DNA of 64,000 nt from the sequence record NC_019500.1. One strand, given 5' to 3'. This DNA comes from Escherichia phage Bp7. The notes beneath the pieces are model-generated. The model had not been told where the DNA came from, ran no database searches, and saw nothing but the letters and a program-made list of their open reading frames with translations. Position numbers and translations under genes: made by a program. This document shows, piece after piece, positions 5,525 to 20,552 of the stretch. Each line of letters starts with the position of its first letter. Position 1 is the first letter of the stretch.

Positions 5525-8236
5525 ATGCAAGAATTCTATTTGACAGTCGAACAAATCGGTGATAATATTCTCGAACGTTACATCGATAAAAATGGTAACG
5601 AACGTAGTCGTGAAGTTCCATACAAGCCTACAATGTTTATGCATGCTAATCCAGAGCAAGCCGTAAAATACATTGATATCTACGGTAAGGGTTGTGTTAA
5701 GAAAGAATTCGACTCTATGCGTGATGCATCCCAATGGATGAAACGTATGGACGATATGGGTCTCGAAGCCCTGGGTATGGACGACTATAAATTAGCCTAT
5801 TTGTCTGATACCTATCGTAAAGAAATCAGATATGATTCTTCTAAGATTCGTATTGCTAACTTCGACATCGAGGTAACATCTCCTGATGGATTCCCTGAAC
5901 CAGCTCAGGCTAAACATCCTATCGATGCCATTACCCACTACGACTCGATTGACGATAAATTCTATGTATTCGACCTTTTAGTTTCGCCTTATGGTACTGT
6001 TGAAGAGTGGTCGATTAAAATCGCTGAGAAACTCCAAGACGAAGGCGGTGACGAAGTTCCACAAGAAATCATTGACAAAATCGTTTATCTTCCGTTTAAT
6101 TCTGAAGAAGAAATGATGCTTGAGTACTTGAATTTCTGGCAACAGAAAACTCCTGTGATTTTGACTGGATGGAACGTTGAGTCGTTTGACGTACCATACG
6201 TTTATAACCGTCTGAAAAATCTGTTCGGTGAGAACACTGCTAAGCGATTAAGCCCACATCGTAAAACTCGTGTTAAAGTTATCGAGAACATGTACGGTGC
6301 TCGTGAAATCATTACATTGTTCGGTATCTCTGTTCTGGATTATATCGACCTGTATAAAAAATTCAGCTTTACCAACCAGCCTTCTTATTCTCTGGATTAT
6401 GTTTCTGAATATGAATTGAAAGTAGGTAAGTTGAAATATGATGGCCCAATCTCCAAGTTACGTGAGACGAACCACCAACGATATATTTCCTATAACATTA
6501 TCGACGTATATCGTGTAGTGCAGATTGATATGAAGCGTCAGTTCATTCTTCTGAGTTTGGACATGGGTTATTATGCCAAGATGCAGATTCAGTCGGTGTT
6601 CAGCCCAATTAAGACTTGGGACGCTATTATCTTTAATAGCCTTAAAGAACAAGGCAAGGTAATTCCACAAGCTCGCTCACACGTGGTCCAACCTTATCCT
6701 GGTGCTTTCGTTAAGGAACCGATTCCTAACGCTTACAAATATGTAATGAGTTTCGACCTTACATCTCTGTATCCGAGTATCATTCGACAAGTGAATATAA
6801 GCCCAGAGACCATCGCAGGGACATTCGCTAACGCACCGATACATGAATATATTGCCGGAACTGCTCAGCGTCCTAGCGACACCTACAGTTGCTCTCCTAA
6901 CGGCATGATGTACTATAAAGACCGTGAAGGTGTGATTCCGACAGAAATCACCAAGGTATTCTTGCAGCGTAAAGAACATAAAGGTTACATGCTTGCAGCT
7001 CAACGTAATGGTGAGTTAATTAAAGAAGCATTGGAAAATCCTAATCTCTCAGTTGATAGTCCACTGGATATCGATTATCGTTTTGACTTCTCTGACGAAA
7101 TCAAAGCCCAGATTAAAGCACTGTCAGCGCCTTCTTTAAGAGAAATGTTGAAGAAAGCCGAGCTCACTGAAGTTGCAGGTAACACTGCTCAGATTAACCG
7201 TAAGTTGCTTATCAACTCCCTTTACGGTGCACTTGGTAACGTATGGTTCCGTTACTATGACCTCAGGAACGCAACTGCAATCACACTGTTTGGTCAAATG
7301 GCCCTCCAATGGATTGAACGTAAGGTTAACGAATATCTGAATAGCGTGTGTAAGACTGAAAATCAGAAGTTCGTGCTCTATGGTGATACTGACTCCATTT
7401 ATGTTAAGGCAGATGCAATCATCAATAAAGTAGGCGAAGATAAATTCCGTGACACTAACCACTGGGTCGACTTCTTAGATAAATTTGCACGTGAACGTAT
7501 GGAACCAGCTATTGATGCAGGCTTCCGTGAGATGTGTGAGTACATGAACAACAAACAACACTTGATGTTCATGGACCGAGAAGCTATCGCTGGTCCTCCA
7601 CTTGGTTCTAAAGGCCTTGGTGGATTCTGGACAGGCAAGAAACGTTATGCACTTAACGTTTGGGACATGGAAGGTACTCGTTATGCCGAACCACACTTGA
7701 AAATCATGGGTCTCGAAACTCAGAAATCAAGTACACCTAAAGCAGTTCAGAAAGCTCTGAAGGAATGTATCCGTCGTATGCTTCAGGAAGGCGAGGCATC
7801 TTTGCAAGAATATTTCAAACAGTTTAATAAGGAATTTAACGAACTCGATTATGTAAGCATTGCAGCAGTATCCAGTGCTAACAACATCGAGAAATATAAT
7901 GAAGGTGGATTCCCTGGCTCTAAATGTCCGTACCACATCAAAGGTTGCTTAGCTTACATGCGTGCTTCTGCAGGTGATTTGACTATGCCTCGTATCGTTG
8001 ATGGTGAAAAGGTATATGTACTGCCGCTTAAAGAAGGCAACCCGTTCGGTGAAGCTTGTATGGCATGGCCGTCAGGTATTGAACTTCCGGTTCAGATTCG
8101 TGACCAAGTCCTCCGTTGGATGGACTACAACGTACTGTTCCAAAAGACCTTTATCAAGCCTCTGACTGGTTTTACTGAGTCCGCTAAAATCGACTACGAG
8201 AAAAAAGCAACATTATTTGACATGTTTGACTTTTAA
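5525..8236 (+). CDS. 43: gp43 DNA polymerase (family B) with 3'-5' exonuclease
   Basis: 903 aa; Exo motifs FDIE and YNIIDV, polymerase motifs DLTSLYPSI, KILINSLYG, YGDTDS; start chosen at MQEFYLTVEQ (5525), not the upstream ORF-track ATG. Confidence 0.95.
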   Translation: MQEFYLTVEQIGDNILERYIDKNGNERSREVPYKPTMFMHANPEQAVKYIDIYGKGCVKKEFDSMRDASQWMKRMDDMGLEALGMDDYKLAYLSDTYRKEIRYDSSKIRIANFDIEVTSPDGFPEPAQAKHPIDAITHYDSIDDKFYVFDLLVSPYGTVEEWSIKIAEKLQDEGGDEVPQEIIDKIVYLPFNSEEEMMLEYLNFWQQKTPVILTGWNVESFDVPYVYNRLKNLFGENTAKRLSPHRKTRVKVIENMYGAREIITLFGISVLDYIDLYKKFSFTNQPSYSLDYVSEYELKVGKLKYDGPISKLRETNHQRYISYNIIDVYRVVQIDMKRQFILLSLDMGYYAKMQIQSVFSPIKTWDAIIFNSLKEQGKVIPQARSHVVQPYPGAFVKEPIPNAYKYVMSFDLTSLYPSIIRQVNISPETIAGTFANAPIHEYIAGTAQRPSDTYSCSPNGMMYYKDREGVIPTEITKVFLQRKEHKGYMLAAQRNGELIKEALENPNLSVDSPLDIDYRFDFSDEIKAQIKALSAPSLREMLKKAELTEVAGNTAQINRKLLINSLYGALGNVWFRYYDLRNATAITLFGQMALQWIERKVNEYLNSVCKTENQKFVLYGDTDSIYVKADAIINKVGEDKFRDTNHWVDFLDKFARERMEPAIDAGFREMCEYMNNKQHLMFMDREAIAGPPLGSKGLGGFWTGKKRYALNVWDMEGTRYAEPHLKIMGLETQKSSTPKAVQKALKECIRRMLQEGEASLQEYFKQFNKEFNELDYVSIAAVSSANNIEKYNEGGFPGSKCPYHIKGCLAYMRASAGDLTMPRIVDGEKVYVLPLKEGNPFGEACMAWPSGIELPVQIRDQVLRWMDYNVLFQKTFIKPLTGFTESAKIDYEKKATLFDMFDF

Positions 8237-8676: not shown

Positions 8677-9177
8677 ATGAAAAAGTTAATTATCGCAATG
8701 AGTATGCTCCTATCAGGTTGCGCAGTCCAGTACGGTGATGCAGTTTCGGCTGATGAAGTTGGTAAAGCTCGTATCGCAGCTGAACAGAAACAATTCGATG
8801 GCGAAATGAAATTCCGTGCAGGTTCAGGACTTGTGTATACCCGAGCTAATAATCAATGTGGTAATAACTGTGCAAAATATGCTCAACGAGAAATTGAATT
8901 CCAACGTGAACAAGAGTCTAAGCGTGAAGCGGTACTAGCCAAACGCCAGGCAGAAATGAAGCGCCAAGATGATTTGTATAAAAAGCAGAAACTGTATGCG
9001 ATGTGCGTAAACCATATCAATCTACAGATTTCTATCCATGAGGCTCGTTATTACGAAATGCTCGAAACCGAAAGCTTTGATAAGGCCCGTGATTATAAGA
9101 AACAAATCAATAAGCTCAAGACCAAAGTGCCGGCAGCAATAGAACAGTGCATCGAAATCGGTAAAGATAAGATTTAA
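8677..9177 (+). CDS. lipoprotein (signal peptide plus lipobox LSGC) with coiled-coil C-terminal part
   Basis: MKKLIIAMSMLLSGCAVQ. Confidence 0.45.
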   Translation: MKKLIIAMSMLLSGCAVQYGDAVSADEVGKARIAAEQKQFDGEMKFRAGSGLVYTRANNQCGNNCAKYAQREIEFQREQESKREAVLAKRQAEMKRQDDLYKKQKLYAMCVNHINLQISIHEARYYEMLETESFDKARDYKKQINKLKTKVPAAIEQCIEIGKDKI

Positions 9178-9180
9178 GCA

Positions 9181-9209
9181 GTATCAATTTATTAAAAATA
9201 GTGTATAAT
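9181..9209 (+). promoter_or_regulatory. sigma70-type promoter with extended -10
   Basis: gtatca, 17 bp, tgTATAAT, upstream of the nucleotidyltransferase-kinase gene. Confidence 0.35.
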
Positions 9210-9237: not shown

Positions 9238-10911
9238 ATGAAAAAGGTTGTTATTTTAGGCGCAGGTCTTGGCTCACGGTTGTATCCAATTACTAACGAA
9301 ATCCCGAAGGTATTGGTTAACTACAAACAACATACAGTACTAAAACATTTGTATGATTTGTATAGTAACCAATCAGATGAAATCATTTTGGTAATTCATA
9401 GCAAATTTAATGACCTTGTTAAGGGTTACATTAAATCCATTAACATGATTACCAGTGATAAGCCTAAATTCATTATTCGTAACGTAGATGTTGCCAATGG
9501 TTCAGCTCATGCTATCGATTGCATTGCTGAAGATATCATCGGGCACAACGTCCTGTTTAACTGGTGTGACATCATTCCTGAGGGTCATAAAGTTGAGTGG
9601 GATAACGACTACTGTTATACCTACGGGACTGACTGTCGTTTTACATTTGAAGAACCGTATTTGCGTGAAATTGGTACCGGCGGTGGTGTGGTTGGTTTGT
9701 ATCAGGTGGCTAATTGGACAGGTTTCGACCGTTCTAATTATGGTGAAGACCTTGCCGACAACCTGGATTCGATGGTCTATTTGACTGAACGTAAGCTGGA
9801 CTTTGTAGTTGATGTAGGTGACAAACTGAAACTGGCTAAGGCCCATGAAGATTCCGAAATTAACCGTGAATTTAATAAATTAGAGTTCACTGAGAATCTG
9901 GCTATTAAAGTACCAACTAACGAATTAGGTAAAGAAATCCAATCTAAAGAAATCAATTGGTACAATTCTATTGATTCTGAATTCGTTCCGAGCATTGTAG
10001 ACTTTGCTCCAGGTGAATTCATTAAAATGGAACGTATCTTTGGACGCACCATGGCAGATGCCTACCGGTTTATGTCTAAAGAAACTAAAGTCCTCATGGT
10101 TTATAAGGTCATTAGTGCATTACGTTCATTTGGTGGAACCATCGATAATCCATCTGATGAGCAATGGTATTCTGATGTTAAGAAAGAAGTATTGGACAAG
10201 GTCCTTATTCGTAATGCTTCTATTGCTGGATTGATTGAAGGCTTTGCTCCACAGGGCATTACCCATGTCAATGACTTTAAGGTAGGCGACCCGGAAAAAC
10301 TTCTTCGTCACGCCTTAGAAATTCTGTCTGAACATAAAGAACCGTACCAACTTATTCATGGCGACCCGCACTACAGTAATATTATGTTGTCGGACGAAGG
10401 TAATATTAAAATCATCGACCCACGTGGTTATTTTGGTAATAGTTCTAAAGGCCCTGCGATTTATGATGAAGCTAAGGTGCTTTATTCTATCGATGGCTAT
10501 GACAAATTTAACTCTGACCCTCTATGGGGTGGCTTAACTCGTAACGGAACTCGTGTATTCGTTGATATTGAAAAGGTTATGCCTTTAGATGATATTCCAA
10601 TGTGTACATTTAAGCACAAGCTCTGGATTGCTGTTATCTGGATGGCACTGGCAGGTTACTTTAAAAATAACCCTCTGAAAGCTCTGGGTGCTTATTACAA
10701 TGGGCTATATCAACTGAGTGTGCTGCTGAAGCGGCATCCTCGTAAGCGTAAGCTTATCACAGGTGAATTCGTCGATGAAGTTCGCGACCCTATCACGGCT
10801 CAAATTATCACTCGTTGTCCTGATAAGTGGGTTTTGCTTGACCAGGAAACTGGTGTAAAATATAAACCTACAGGTTCTACCGAACTCCACAAACAATGGA
10901 AGAAAATTTAA
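9238..10911 (+). CDS. bifunctional nucleotidyltransferase (N-terminal) / APH-like kinase (C-terminal) fusion
   Basis: N-terminal ILGAGLGSRL (G-x-G-x-R-L sugar-phosphate nucleotidyltransferase motif); C-terminal HGDPHYSNIMLSDEGNIKIIDPRG (Brenner-type kinase catalytic loop). Confidence 0.55.
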   Translation: MKKVVILGAGLGSRLYPITNEIPKVLVNYKQHTVLKHLYDLYSNQSDEIILVIHSKFNDLVKGYIKSINMITSDKPKFIIRNVDVANGSAHAIDCIAEDIIGHNVLFNWCDIIPEGHKVEWDNDYCYTYGTDCRFTFEEPYLREIGTGGGVVGLYQVANWTGFDRSNYGEDLADNLDSMVYLTERKLDFVVDVGDKLKLAKAHEDSEINREFNKLEFTENLAIKVPTNELGKEIQSKEINWYNSIDSEFVPSIVDFAPGEFIKMERIFGRTMADAYRFMSKETKVLMVYKVISALRSFGGTIDNPSDEQWYSDVKKEVLDKVLIRNASIAGLIEGFAPQGITHVNDFKVGDPEKLLRHALEILSEHKEPYQLIHGDPHYSNIMLSDEGNIKIIDPRGYFGNSSKGPAIYDEAKVLYSIDGYDKFNSDPLWGGLTRNGTRVFVDIEKVMPLDDIPMCTFKHKLWIAVIWMALAGYFKNNPLKALGAYYNGLYQLSVLLKRHPRKRKLITGEFVDEVRDPITAQIITRCPDKWVLLDQETGVKYKPTGSTELHKQWKKI

Positions 10912-11270
10912 TGCATCTGTGTTTTGATATCGATAATACCATTACTCACTGGCAAGATGACCGTGATTACGAAAACTTTAAACCGGACACCGAAATGGTG
11001 TCCATGATTAATAAGCTTTATGATGAAGGGTACGAGATTACCTTGTTCACTGCCCGTGGTATGACTTCATGCGGCCCAGGTCGAATCTTGGTTGAAGTAG
11101 TTCCTGCATTAGTTAAGAACCTTGAAAAGATTGGATTGAAATATCACAATCTGCTTACACATAAGCCGAGTTATACTTTTATCATCGATGACCGAGCAAT
11201 CCGTCCTGACCACTTTAAAGAAATGGTTCGTGAAGGAACTCTTGAAACCTATAAGGCATATCATCCGTGA
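10911..11270 (+). CDS. HAD-superfamily phosphatase (small)
   Basis: DxDxT motif in MHLCFDIDNTI, FTARG and IIDDR motifs; alternative start at 10896. Confidence 0.5.
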   Translation: MHLCFDIDNTITHWQDDRDYENFKPDTEMVSMINKLYDEGYEITLFTARGMTSCGPGRILVEVVPALVKNLEKIGLKYHNLLTHKPSYTFIIDDRAIRPDHFKEMVREGTLETYKAYHP

Positions 11271-11803
11271 AACCAAAAATCATTGTTATCGACGGCCCGG
11301 ATAATTCCGGGAAGTCTACTTTAATTGAATCACTTTTATCTGATAAGAAATATCGTCTTATTGATTTCCCTAAAAAGATTAATGGCAAATGCATTTCATT
11401 AGGGACTGATAATGACAAGGCTTTAGTCGAGACGTTGTATAAGTTTTTAGACCCTAATTTTGTCTACATCTTAGACCGTGGGTATCCTAGTAATATTGTT
11501 TACTCTGGATTCCTTCGTGGTGAAATGGACCCTTATGTAGAACTGGAAGATTGGAAAGGGTTTAAATCTGAATTCAATATTATTGAGGTTATTTTAACCC
11601 GTAATCCACTGGATAAAGACTTTGAAGATGACCTTATTAAATTAACCAAAGATGAGTTCAACCTAACTATCCGGCAATATGAAACATGTTTTGAAAACGT
11701 GTTTAAAATCTTAAATCACGACGGCCATAATAACTTGCTTAACGTCGATATGGTAGAATTAAAACGTCTGAATGAATATATTGAAAATAAGGTGAATAAA
11801 TGA
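11267..11803 (+). CDS. P-loop nucleoside/nucleotide kinase, thymidylate-kinase-like
   Basis: Walker A IVIDGPDNSGKST and a DRGY...S motif (TMPK DRY-like). Confidence 0.5.
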   Translation: MKPKIIVIDGPDNSGKSTLIESLLSDKKYRLIDFPKKINGKCISLGTDNDKALVETLYKFLDPNFVYILDRGYPSNIVYSGFLRGEMDPYVELEDWKGFKSEFNIIEVILTRNPLDKDFEDDLIKLTKDEFNLTIRQYETCFENVFKILNHDGHNNLLNVDMVELKRLNEYIENKVNK

Positions 11804-12498
11804 AACACATTACCGCTGTTAGTTTTGAAAACGCGTTTAAGCAAATGAACGAAGAAATCCTGGAAGCTCCACAGTTTGCAGTTGATTCTCGTATCGGCCG
11901 TTGTTATGAAATTGGTTCTGCTTCGGTAGAAGTACTGGATGCAAGCACCTATAAATTCACCGACCCTCGTATTAATCGTATCAACTATGATTATGCCGAA
12001 TCTTTCTGGAAGTTTATGATTTCTGGTGGTACTGACGCCACCGAAGCATTTAAGGAATACCCTAATGTTGCTAAGTTCATTGATAAGCCGAAAAGTGACG
12101 TATTGCCTGCAAACTTCAACACTTTCTATGGACCTAGAATTGTGGCCCAACTCCCAGCCCTACTTAAAGAGCTTAAAGAAAAGCCTAACTCGAGACGAGT
12201 TGTGTTCCAAATTCTCCAAGAACAAGACCAAGCCCTCCTTGATTCTGACGAATCCTTAGAATATCCATGTACCGATTCGGTGACATATTATATTCGTGAT
12301 GGACGTCTGTATGCACACACCCATATGCGTTCACAGAACTGTGCTATCGTTATGCAGCTGGATTTCTATCTGCAGGGTAAACTGATGGCCTTTATTGCTG
12401 AACAGTGTGGTGTTGGTCTGGGTACATATTCCCATACTATGGTTAGTGCACATGTATTTGAACGTGATTTTGACTACGTTCGAGGATTCCTGAAATGA
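11800..12498 (+). CDS. 42: pyrimidine hydroxymethylase, gene-42-like (thymidylate synthase fold)
   Basis: YPCTDSVTYYIRD and HMRSQNCAIVMQLDFYLQ resemble the T4 gp42 catalytic Cys region; lies between 43 and uvsX. Confidence 0.6.
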   Translation: MKHITAVSFENAFKQMNEEILEAPQFAVDSRIGRCYEIGSASVEVLDASTYKFTDPRINRINYDYAESFWKFMISGGTDATEAFKEYPNVAKFIDKPKSDVLPANFNTFYGPRIVAQLPALLKELKEKPNSRRVVFQILQEQDQALLDSDESLEYPCTDSVTYYIRDGRLYAHTHMRSQNCAIVMQLDFYLQGKLMAFIAEQCGVGLGTYSHTMVSAHVFERDFDYVRGFLK

Positions 12499-13388
12499 GT
12501 TTGTTTATCGTTCCTATTTTCAGTATGCGTAGTTACGAAACAGGTGAATATGCCGTCCTTAAGGACGGTAATTTTCAACTCCATTTAAACCGTGCTTGCC
12601 CAGGTGATTATCTGGCTTATCCTAGAAATTCGAGCGATATCAAAGAATGCATTGAATTATTTCCTGAACTGAATTTTGTACCTCTTTGGTATAAAGAAAA
12701 TGCTTATGAAACTCGTAAACATTTTTGGTCTGAAAATGAGTTCGTTGTTGATTCGTTAATCGAATACTATGACTGCTCAGGATTGGTAACCGATATCACA
12801 GGTTATGAGGGTACCCAGACTGTACAATTCAACTTTAACATTACAATGGACCCTGAAGTTCCTCGTTATTATATTGATGAGTTCATTGATATCGACGTGT
12901 CTTCAGTTGAACGTTCGATTTATACTACAGTCTTGAATCAATGTCAGAAAGACGTCCTGGTGACACGAGGTGCGTCCTCTGATAAGATTTTTGTAGACCA
13001 AAAGGTAATTAATCCGGCAGTAATTGAGCGTTACTCTGAAGGTCTAGCGCCTATTAAAATTGATGGTATTTTCCATCCATTCCGTATCTCTGATAAATGC
13101 TATCAATTCGAAAGAGTTGTAGACCAAGCTGCGGCTGAAGGTTCTCGCCTTTATATCACCGATCCGAATGATTCATTTAAACGTGAAGACTATCGTCCTG
13201 ATGTAGAGATTATTAAATTCAAACCGAGTAAGGTTGAATATTATCAGATTCTGAAATCAAGACCTCATATCATTTATCATGAGAATCCTGGTTTAGTATT
13301 CCATCCAGGTCTAGCCGAATTCATTTATTTCGGTGCCCATATCCATTCTGAGCACGAAATGCCAAGTTATGAGGACGTGGTCCTTTAA
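12495..13388 (+). CDS. hypothetical protein at the position of T4 beta-glucosyltransferase; candidate DNA sugar transferase
   Basis: 297 aa, start overlaps the 42-like stop (ATGA); no motif recognised, assignment is positional only. Confidence 0.3.
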   Translation: MSLFIVPIFSMRSYETGEYAVLKDGNFQLHLNRACPGDYLAYPRNSSDIKECIELFPELNFVPLWYKENAYETRKHFWSENEFVVDSLIEYYDCSGLVTDITGYEGTQTVQFNFNITMDPEVPRYYIDEFIDIDVSSVERSIYTTVLNQCQKDVLVTRGASSDKIFVDQKVINPAVIERYSEGLAPIKIDGIFHPFRISDKCYQFERVVDQAAAEGSRLYITDPNDSFKREDYRPDVEIIKFKPSKVEYYQILKSRPHIIYHENPGLVFHPGLAEFIYFGAHIHSEHEMPSYEDVVL

Positions 13389-18564: not shown

Positions 18565-19593
18565 ATGTCATATGTCGATAAAGAATTTGCTGTACGTGCC
18601 TTGAATTACCAACCTAAATTCAGACAAGTAACTGGTAGTGATTTTAAATTAAACTGTCGTTGTCGTGTATGCGGTGACTCTCAAAAAGATGAGAACAAAG
18701 CTCGTTTTTGGGCCTATCCGGCTAATGACGGCTCTGTAATGCTGCACTGTTTTAACTGTGACTATTCAGCAGGAATTAAGAAGTATCTATACGAATACGA
18801 GCCTGATTTATATCGCGAATATATTCTTGAGAAACATAAAGAGCAATCGTTCGGGAGACAAGCTGCACCTAAGGTGGAGATATCTGAAAAAATTAAAGCT
18901 AAGATGCCTGTCATCGAAAAGCTTAATTTCTGTGAACGATTAGATAGGATGCCGAAGGACCATCCTATTATCAAATATGTGACGTTACGTTGCATTCCTG
19001 AAAACAAATGGAACCGGCTGTGGTTTACTAAAGAATGGCCTGCATTAGTTAACTCTGTGAATCCAGGGACCTATTCTAAAGAAATGCCTGAGCCTCGTTT
19101 GGTTATTCCAATTTTCAATAAGAATAAACAAATTGAAAGTTTTCAGGGTCGAGCCTTACGTAAAGATGCTCCACAAAAATATATTACAATAAAAGCTCAC
19201 GACCAAGCTACAAAAATATATGGAATGGATACAGTTGACGAACGTCAGTTGGTGTGGGTAATGGAAGGCCCTATTGACTCTTTGTTTGTTCCGAATGCAA
19301 TAGCAATTACTGGCGGGTCGTTGGACTTGGCTATGGTTCCGTGCAAAGAAACTAGGGTTTGGGCCCTTGATAGCGAAAGCCGCCACCCAGATACTATTTC
19401 AAGAATGAAAAAGCTTATCGAGGCTGGTGAAAAAGTAGTGTTTTGGGATAAGGTCCCTTGGCCTTCTAAAGATATTAACGATATGATTAGAAAAGACGGG
19501 GCGTCGCCGGAAGCAATACTAGAATATATGAAAAGTAATTACAGTCAAGGATTAATGGCTAAATTGAGATTACAACGGTATGCTAAAATATGA
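18565..19593 (+). CDS. 61: gp61 DNA primase
   Basis: 342 aa; zinc ribbon CRCRVCGD...CFNC; FQGRALRKDAPQKYITI resembles T4 gp61. Confidence 0.9.
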   Translation: MSYVDKEFAVRALNYQPKFRQVTGSDFKLNCRCRVCGDSQKDENKARFWAYPANDGSVMLHCFNCDYSAGIKKYLYEYEPDLYREYILEKHKEQSFGRQAAPKVEISEKIKAKMPVIEKLNFCERLDRMPKDHPIIKYVTLRCIPENKWNRLWFTKEWPALVNSVNPGTYSKEMPEPRLVIPIFNKNKQIESFQGRALRKDAPQKYITIKAHDQATKIYGMDTVDERQLVWVMEGPIDSLFVPNAIAITGGSLDLAMVPCKETRVWALDSESRHPDTISRMKKLIEAGEKVVFWDKVPWPSKDINDMIRKDGASPEAILEYMKSNYSQGLMAKLRLQRYAKI

Positions 19594-20345
19594 ATTATAA
19601 TAAAATTTATGACGATTTGGTTAATAGGGCCCTTGAAAGGGGTCTTATTAAAGAAAATTTAAAATACTATACAGAATCTCATCATATTATACCTGAATGT
19701 ATAGGTGGGCCTGATATAGATTCAAACAAAGTATTATTTACGGCAAGAGAGCATTTTATAGCTCACATATTATTGTATAAGATTTATAAGTTGCCTAAAT
19801 TAATATATGCTGTGCATATGATGTGCAATTCTAGTGAAAAGCACCAAAGAAATTCTAAGATGTATGACTGGCTTAGAAAGGACCATAAAGCAGCCTTAAG
19901 TAAGAAAATGACCGATGCTTGGAAAGCCCCTGAATTTAGGACCAAAATGGTGGCGGCCTTATACCAAAGGCACAAAGATAAGCCCGTCACAGAGGAGACT
20001 AGGGAAAAACAGTCTAATTCTCTAAAGAGGTATTATAAAGAAAATCCTATCTCTGAAGAAGCAAAAAAGAAAAATTCAGAAGCCCAAAAACAAAGGTTTA
20101 AAGATAGGCCTCAAACAGAAGAAACAAAAAGATTAAGGAAGGACTCATGCAGAAAAACCCAAGGCACCCCTATATGGTTATGTAATTCGAATGGGGTAGG
20201 AATAGAAAAGTTTTCTTCTGCGGCAGAAGCTAAAGAAATCTTAGGATTGTCCGGGCACACCCAAAATATATACACCGCTTGTAAGCGAAACAAAGAAACC
20301 GGGAGATTGTATAAATCCTCCGGTTTAATTTGGAAATATCAATAA
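19590..20345 (+). CDS. HNH homing endonuclease (Mob-like), paralogous to the 592-1308 gene
   Basis: HHIIPECIGGPD; N-terminus MNYNKIYDDLVNRALERG parallels MNYKSIYEKLIQRAVNR; AT-rich with AGA/AGG/ATA codons; start overlaps the gp61 stop (ATGA). Confidence 0.7.
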   Translation: MNYNKIYDDLVNRALERGLIKENLKYYTESHHIIPECIGGPDIDSNKVLFTAREHFIAHILLYKIYKLPKLIYAVHMMCNSSEKHQRNSKMYDWLRKDHKAALSKKMTDAWKAPEFRTKMVAALYQRHKDKPVTEETREKQSNSLKRYYKENPISEEAKKKNSEAQKQRFKDRPQTEETKRLRKDSCRKTQGTPIWLCNSNGVGIEKFSSAAEAKEILGLSGHTQNIYTACKRNKETGRLYKSSGLIWKYQ

Positions 20346-20351
20346 TGGCAT

Positions 20352-20552
20352 TTAAACCTGCATACCTGTAAAGAATCCAATGATGCTCAACACGTGTTCC
20401 ATAGTAACCGCAGGGAGAGTAATACCCTGACTAGCCGCAACAGGTACAACTAAAAGATTCCATAGGAACACATCTAAAGCAAGGAAGCCCATCATGAGCT
20501 TTTTATCTTTCTTGCTGGTTAATTTCCAAATTTGGTAAAATATACTACCCAT
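20352..20552 (-). CDS. small membrane protein with a late promoter (minus strand)
   Basis: 66 aa with two hydrophobic segments; GGAGGA RBS; reverse-complement TATAAATA upstream. Confidence 0.4.
   Translation of the reverse strand: MGSIFYQIWKLTSKKDKKLMMGFLALDVFLWNLLVVPVAASQGITLPAVTMEHVLSIIGFFTGMQV

Follow-up and report, generated by a model that had tools for sequence, protein, structure and literature searches.

The DNA of phage RB69 carries arabinose joined directly to O5 of 5-hydroxycytosine (5hoC), not to 5-hydroxymethylcytosine (hmC), with an alpha-linked first and a beta-linked second sugar (PMC13326640). Its gp48 has been shown to be a flavin-dependent 5-hydroxy-dCMP (5hodCMP) synthase (Lee et al., PMC13326640), and the family of gp46:47, annotated as ORF047c and ORF046c because a sequencing error divides a single gene, has been put forward as the nucleobase-proximal arabinosyltransferase (Lee et al. 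2026, NAR; PMC13326640). The naming of RB69 gp46:47 and of gp79 of Acinetobacter phage DLP3 as 'arabinosyltransferase 1' is itself a prediction (PMC13326640). The second arabinose is added on DNA by RB69 gp3, encoded between rIIA and gene 39, a 366-aa enzyme grouped with Bas46 Aat and the HY126 glycosyltransferase (PDB 9iqz, 9ir0), 9iqz being the solved structure of the HY126 homolog. In the present study, we analysed a stretch of 64,000 nucleotides from Escherichia phage Bp7 (NC_019500.1), hereafter the window, and propose, at a probability of about 70%, that a 297-aa protein encoded at 12495-13388 (+ strand) is the first arabinofuranosyltransferase for 5-hydroxycytosine.

The open reading frame (ORF), with ATG start and TAA stop, lies directly 3' of a thymidylate synthase (ThyA)-superfamily gene (11800-12498, +), whose TGA stop falls within an ATGA overlap at 12495-12498. 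A ribosome-binding site, GAGGA (12482-12486, +), can be read 8 nt 5' of the ATG, within the 3' end of the upstream gene, and the overlap implies a probable translational coupling of the two. uvsX comes next, from 13466. The T4 counterpart of this interval, between gene 42, of the same superfamily, and uvsX, is filled by b-gt and segA, and the arrangement is thus the one that the original prediction had described, with the 297-aa gene in the slot of the T4 beta-glucosyltransferase (beta-gt; CAZy GT63). At the DNA level the window shares 98.3% identity with Escherichia phage KIT01 and 92-98% with further relatives including QL01, WG01, IME08 and VR5; those with taxonomy retrieved (IME341, JS98) belong to the genus Dhakavirus, Tevenvirinae, and the window is that of a Dhakavirus, a JS98/IME08/KIT01-like T-even phage. 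Against QL01, identity is 97.7% for the DNA and 99.0% for the 297-aa protein, homologs of which occur in 357 phage records at 25-99% identity. The gene is, by this measure, evidently under selection, and a chance ORF at 12495-13388 is excluded by the conservation.

Residues 1-179 of the protein align by tblastn with RB69 ORF047c at 68% identity and residues 184-297 with ORF046c at 64%, and the BFVD structures of the two RB69 fragments superimpose on it with template modelling (TM) scores of 0.96-0.97. The protein also matches PHROG 3891 (E = 3e-158) and is 51% identical to TH1_063 of Shewanella phage Thanatos. To judge from these alignments, the gene is the Dhakavirus ortholog of RB69 gp46:47, DLP3 gp79 and Thanatos TH1_063. 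Searches of Pfam, NCBIfam and PDB sequences gave no match for the protein, alone or as an 88-member family profile, and hhalign of the profile was negative against T4 beta-gt and reached a probability of 0.2% against RB69 gp3, the sequence of which is unlike the 297-aa family. The lack of recognisable similarity claimed at the outset therefore stands. The suggestion of a possible new transferase family fails in that the orthologs have already been proposed as the first arabinosyltransferase (PMC13326640, PMC12838424): the protein is the Dhakavirus member of a family proposed in 2025-2026, not of a newly discovered one.

AlphaFold modelling from the family alignment (predicted local distance difference test 95.9, predicted TM score 0.90) gives, with very high confidence, a GT-B fold, with two Rossmann-like domains and an inter-domain cleft, and it was fold prediction that the original prediction had named beforehand as a check. 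In a viral structure library the orthologs are matched first, followed by viral glycosyltransferases; the HY126 phage glycosyltransferase 9iqz (14.0) and T4 alpha-gt (13.5) appear lower down among the structural matches. Residues R74, D100, R197, D200, K246 and H270-P-G are invariant or nearly so in the family, R197 (directly after strand 192-194) and K246 being strictly invariant, and position 275 is E or D, acidic in every member. In the model, the conserved residues sit after strands or at helix starts, where GT-B enzymes would bind the nucleotide sugar, the equivalences to known enzymes being judged from secondary-structure position only. Bacterial retaining GT4 enzymes (sucrose-phosphate synthase 6kih, BshA, PimA, MshA, WaaG) are 7-15% identical to the protein, which is about 70-100 residues shorter. 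A retaining mechanism is not distinguishable from an inverting one by this fold, and both RB69 transferases resemble GT4 enzymes. Within the window and positions 1-50 kb of JS98, the 297-aa protein is the sole candidate with a glycosyltransferase fold that we found, which bears out its standing as the likeliest DNA-modifying transferase of the island.

The acceptor base is where our results depart from the earlier view, which took the upstream gene for a gene 42-like hydroxymethylase and hmC for the acceptor. The 11800-12498 product is 78.8% identical to RB69 gp48, and it matches the HY126 crystal structures PDB 9iqu/9iqc (E = 1.5e-125) and 9ir2 (E = 1e-125), as against E = 4.6e-6 and 25% identity for the T4 gp42 dCMP hydroxymethylase. 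An Asn at the position of E. coli D169 is the published predictor of a 5hodCMP synthase (PMC13326640); Cys157, Asn180 (the D169 position) and Asp188 (the N177 position) of the window protein fit that signature, and T4 gp42 has Asp where the window protein has Asn180. A hydroxymethylase identity is excluded by this signature, and we annotate the gene as a predicted flavin-dependent 5hodCMP synthase, which is predicted from its sequence to supply the acceptor base for the transferase. Since this neighbour matches 5hodCMP synthases, with T4 gp42 at just 25% identity, hmC can almost certainly be dismissed as the acceptor. The resemblance to T4 beta-gt lies in the slot and in a predicted general role, the placing of a sugar onto C5-oxygenated cytosine to protect phage DNA; neither sequence nor close structural homology to that enzyme was found, and hmC-DNA is not the expected acceptor.

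Genes that could furnish the donor lie immediately upstream. A gene at 9238-10911 (+) encodes an N-terminal sugar-1-phosphate nucleotidyltransferase joined to a C-terminal APH-like kinase (Pfam NTP_transferase, E = 7.7e-8; APH, E = 9e-6; PHROG 4098), homologous to RB69 gp52:53 and HY126 AfhE and 41-44% identical to RB69 gp52/gp53 by tblastn. Its longest ORF opens at 9208; the homologs and the JS98 annotation (gp042, 557 aa) open at the ATG at 9238, the PHROG 4098 alignment begins at residue 11 of the ORF, and the alignment with RB69 also runs from 9238. It is followed by a 124-aa HAD-family phosphatase (10896-11270, +; PHROG 1238), the homolog of RB69 gp51 (62% identity) and HY126 AfhF, which hits the capsule-biosynthesis phosphatase model TIGR01689 at E = 1.6e-14, under the curated cutoff (53.9 vs 162 bits). 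According to PMC13326640, which cites He et al. 2026 for both points, AfhE and AfhF together convert arabinose-5-phosphate to UDP-arabinofuranose (UDP-Araf), AfhF acting on Araf-1,5-bisphosphate to give Araf-1-phosphate. A 178-aa P-loop thymidylate-kinase-like nucleotide kinase (11267-11803, +; PHROG 761, E = 2.4e-39; 37% identity to its homolog RB69 gp45) completes the group, standing upstream of the ThyA gene in the window and downstream of the transferase in RB69. The five genes across 9238-13388 overlap each other by a few bases and, read from these junctions, are apparently translationally coupled.

The family is small, with 244 representatives among 1.84 billion proteins, and its neighbourhood is telling. 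In 49 IMG/VR loci encoding it, for which we surveyed the neighbours within 8 kb, a ThyA homolog is found near the transferase in 45, 44 of them with the Asn/Asp signature of 5hodCMP synthases, and a thymidylate-kinase-like kinase in 46, mostly immediately downstream of the transferase. AfhE-like genes (30 loci), HAD genes (28), arabinose-5-phosphate isomerase genes (20) and an RB69 gp3-like second transferase (4) are less regular. The transferase is also fused to the kinase in P0205, P0214, P0216, P0230, P0245 and P0246, and in the reverse order in P0221; the fused kinase domain matches the kinase family of the window (PHROG 761) with an hhalign probability of 94.9%, and the contigs of the fusion proteins are too short to show gene context. 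On the strength of these counts and fusions, 5hodCMP synthase, transferase and kinase form the conserved core, and no other gene is linked to the transferase as tightly as the kinase. Another set of members (P0131, P0143, P0146, P0168, P0169) bears an HAD-like N-terminal extension (DFDG...GDD); in the P0131 type the HAD motifs are recognised by eye with a weak Pfam match, and hhalign gives no link to the HAD protein of the window. Metagenomic and jumbo-phage contigs hold a minimal four-gene module (L005:6426-9576; loci L037-L052) of a flavodoxin_2 protein (flavin mononucleotide reductase-like), a signature-positive ThyA, a 346-aa transferase homolog and a thymidylate-kinase-like kinase, with no AfhE, HAD or isomerase gene within 8 kb, which suggests that the host supplies the nucleoside diphosphate-sugar donor and that the hydroxylase has a flavin reductase of its own.

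A second arrangement was seen around the transferase homolog at 8001 in three distant loci (L006:7496-10125, L055 and L059), where kinase, transferase and a peptidase U32 gene stand together with no ThyA homolog nearby; L006 has a GT47-like gene in addition. The RNA 5-hydroxypyrimidine hydroxylases RlhA and TrhP belong to the U32 family, and a U32 enzyme may offer these ThyA-less loci another way to 5-hydroxycytosine. RB69 gp50, the U32 gene, is among the genes of the cluster best conserved between distant phages, at 83-89% identity in the loci and 79% to Thanatos. Thanatos and RB69 carry it; tblastn found no match to it in the window or across JS98 1-50 kb.

Taken together, the 297-aa protein is very probably a DNA-modifying sugar transferase. 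The ORF, its orthology, its GT-B fold, the identity of its neighbours and the co-occurrence with signature-positive ThyA homologs are established here; from them we infer the donor, acceptor, timing and stereochemistry of the transfer. In the proposed scheme, the ThyA-like enzyme would hydroxylate dCMP to 5hodCMP, which would then be phosphorylated and incorporated instead of dC, while the AfhE-like enzyme and the HAD phosphatase would turn host arabinose-5-phosphate into UDP-Araf. The GT-B enzyme would hold UDP-Araf in its C-terminal Rossmann domain, with R197, K246, H270-P-G and E275 as candidate ligands, and would move the first arabinofuranose to O5 of 5-hydroxycytosine, most likely in DNA already replicated, to give ether-linked 5-O-arabinosyl-dC. 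No further sugar would be added, leaving the DNA mono-arabinosylated. It is this whole assignment, from UDP-Araf donor to mono-arabinosylated DNA, that carries the probability of roughly 0.7. By likeness, it is supported by Thanatos, in whose DNA a hydroxylated cytosine bears one pentose (PMC12838424, PMC13326640), whose gene order is ThyA-transferase-kinase and in which TH1_063 is the single candidate with a glycosyltransferase fold.

A number of observations weigh against this assignment, and they also feed the competing explanations. No Pfam glycosyltransferase model, Glycos_transf_1 and Glyco_trans_4 included, matches any of the 88 family members, the canonical EX7E motif is found in none of the family, and the spacing of the conserved residues differs. 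The top Foldseek ranks go to UDP-GlcNAc 2-epimerases, with modest scores, which likewise have a GT-B fold; this ranking is the sole pointer to a GT-B enzyme that is not a transferase but remodels a nucleotide sugar in the manner of such an epimerase. We regard this as very unlikely, for the protein has no epimerase Pfam match, the published route to UDP-Araf requires no epimerase (PMC13326640), and the phage would be left without a transferase. Transfer has been demonstrated for no member of the family in the work surveyed (PMC13326640, PMC12838424). TH1_063 glycosylated neither DNA nor dC nucleotides, all of them acceptors lacking a 5-OH, and was reported to form UDP-xylose, as judged by liquid chromatography-tandem mass spectrometry, from UTP and xylose-1-phosphate (PMC12838424). 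With 51% identity between the two proteins, that activity would make the 297-aa protein a UDP-pentose pyrophosphorylase, which makes the donor from UTP and pentose-1-phosphate and transfers nothing. Such an activity does not fit the GT-B fold, which is not that of a nucleotidyltransferase, and the 297-aa protein has no Pfam match to NTP_transferase; that domain is already present in the AfhE-like protein of the operon, and the HY126 AfhE homolog is described in PMC13326640, citing He et al., as a UDP-arabinose pyrophosphorylase. As Dhakavirus and Thanatos would then both lack any transferase, we give this explanation very little credence.

Harder to set aside is the timing of the transfer. The individual DLP3 transferases, supplied with UDP-Araf or UDP-Arap, did not arabinosylate 5hoC-DNA, and Lee et al. 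left open that the first step could take place on the mononucleotide (PMC13326640). The same family and donor could accordingly serve an acceptor that is free 5hodCMP, arabinosylated before replication, after which the kinase would phosphorylate Ara-5ho-dCMP and the polymerase would use a glycosylated dCTP analogue. The near-constant company of the kinase, the fusions in both orders and the minimal module that occurs without sugar-activation genes all agree with such a route, as does the strongly acidic character of the family (isoelectric point 4.83, net charge -19, vs 9.05 for T4 beta-gt), itself a further point against an enzyme working on DNA. Moreover, the ordinary dNMP kinase of RB69 converts 5hodCMP, which would leave the extra kinase without a job (PMC13326640). 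The other side of the balance is nevertheless heavier. Expression of the ThyA homolog and the dNMP kinase alone gives 5hodC in DNA, so that 5hodCTP is made and used, and the later arabinoses go onto DNA in vitro (PMC13326640). A gene fusion speaks of functional coupling and not of the chemical step, and net charge is weak evidence. The idea also runs against precedent: to our knowledge, every characterised phage DNA glycosylation is post-replicative. We therefore consider arabinosylation of the free nucleotide improbable, if distinctly less so than the two explanations above; were it true, it would provide the first example of a sugar-hypermodified base assembled ahead of DNA synthesis and would account for the failed in vitro assays on 5hoC-DNA.

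Another point on the negative side concerns the supply of the sugar for transfer by the 297-aa enzyme. The arabinose-5-phosphate isomerase of RB69 (gp55) has no tblastn match in either the window or the first 50 kb of JS98. Host KdsD and GutQ can provide arabinose-5-phosphate in E. coli, and Thanatos has no isomerase in the 30-kb stretch examined, its DNA being pentosylated nevertheless. Compared with its counterparts in isomerase-less phages (L011-L019 and L031, comprising Dhakaviruses and related contigs), the window's AfhE-like protein shows 71-99% identity, against just 45-56% for those of the isomerase-carrying phages of the same set (L011-L035); from these sequences, two AfhE-like subtypes might differ in their sugar-phosphate substrate. 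Because the isomerase is missing from the window and the substrate might differ in this way, we infer rather than observe that the Dhakavirus sugar is arabinose. In the RB69 position of the isomerase, between imm and the AfhE-like gene, the window has a 166-aa ORF (8677-9177, +) with a lipoprotein signal (MKKLIIAMSMLLSGC, lipobox LSGC) that belongs to PHROG 1754, of unassigned function; by its position beside imm, its product may be a superinfection-exclusion or envelope protein.

Apart from the isomerase and the U32 'peptidase', the Dhakavirus cluster differs from that of RB69 in having no second transferase. Neither RB69 gp3 nor T4 beta-gt has a tblastn match in the window or JS98 1-50 kb, no Dhakavirus is among the 212 gp3-positive records, and the a-gt slot of JS98 has no gene annotated as a-gt. 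Among Escherichia phages, 137 have the isomerase, 137 have gp3 and 175 have the 297-aa family, and the shortfall of 38 equals the number of near-identity DNA matches to the window whose records are named for Escherichia. Since the regions examined yielded no second transferase, Dhakavirus DNA is predicted to be mono-arabinosylated. As for the slot itself, genes 47 and 55 of JS98 (L061, 36753-38478) still enclose the small T4 genes a-gt.2 to a-gt.5, a-gt having been lost or never present.

In public records the 297-aa protein goes under 'hypothetical', several homologs of 12495-13388 (MH051917.1, MW679410.1, KY979109.1, NC_055783.1) being labelled 'RNA polymerase binding protein'. Homology to T4 RpbA is not borne out, the hhalign probability being 0.5% and JS98 having its own rpbA next to gene 45. 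The neighbouring 5hodCMP synthase gene appears as 'dCMP hydroxymethylase' or 'thymidylate synthase'. Scans for promoters and terminators and the base composition revealed nothing special, and the cluster is not compositionally foreign. Elsewhere in the window, primase gene 61 is followed directly by an ORF for a 251-aa homing endonuclease (19590-20345, +; PHROG 655, E = 1.6e-52), which lies in a segment (19493-20369) without counterpart in JS98, indicating a mobile-element insertion relative to that phage.

For Dhakavirus (JS98, IME08, KIT01), an entire genus of therapeutic-type coliphages, our findings thus correct the annotation and predict that the DNA carries mono-arabinosylated 5-hydroxycytosine instead of hmC or glucosyl-hmC. 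DNA of this kind would bear on sensitivity to restriction, CRISPR and type IV defence, as well as on phage sequencing and engineering. With one transferase, and with isomerase, U32 gene and second transferase not found, Dhakavirus would offer a minimal system for the first sugar-transfer step. The near-universal linkage of the transferase to the kinase, together with their occasional fusion, leads to a concrete hypothesis on where that first transfer happens.

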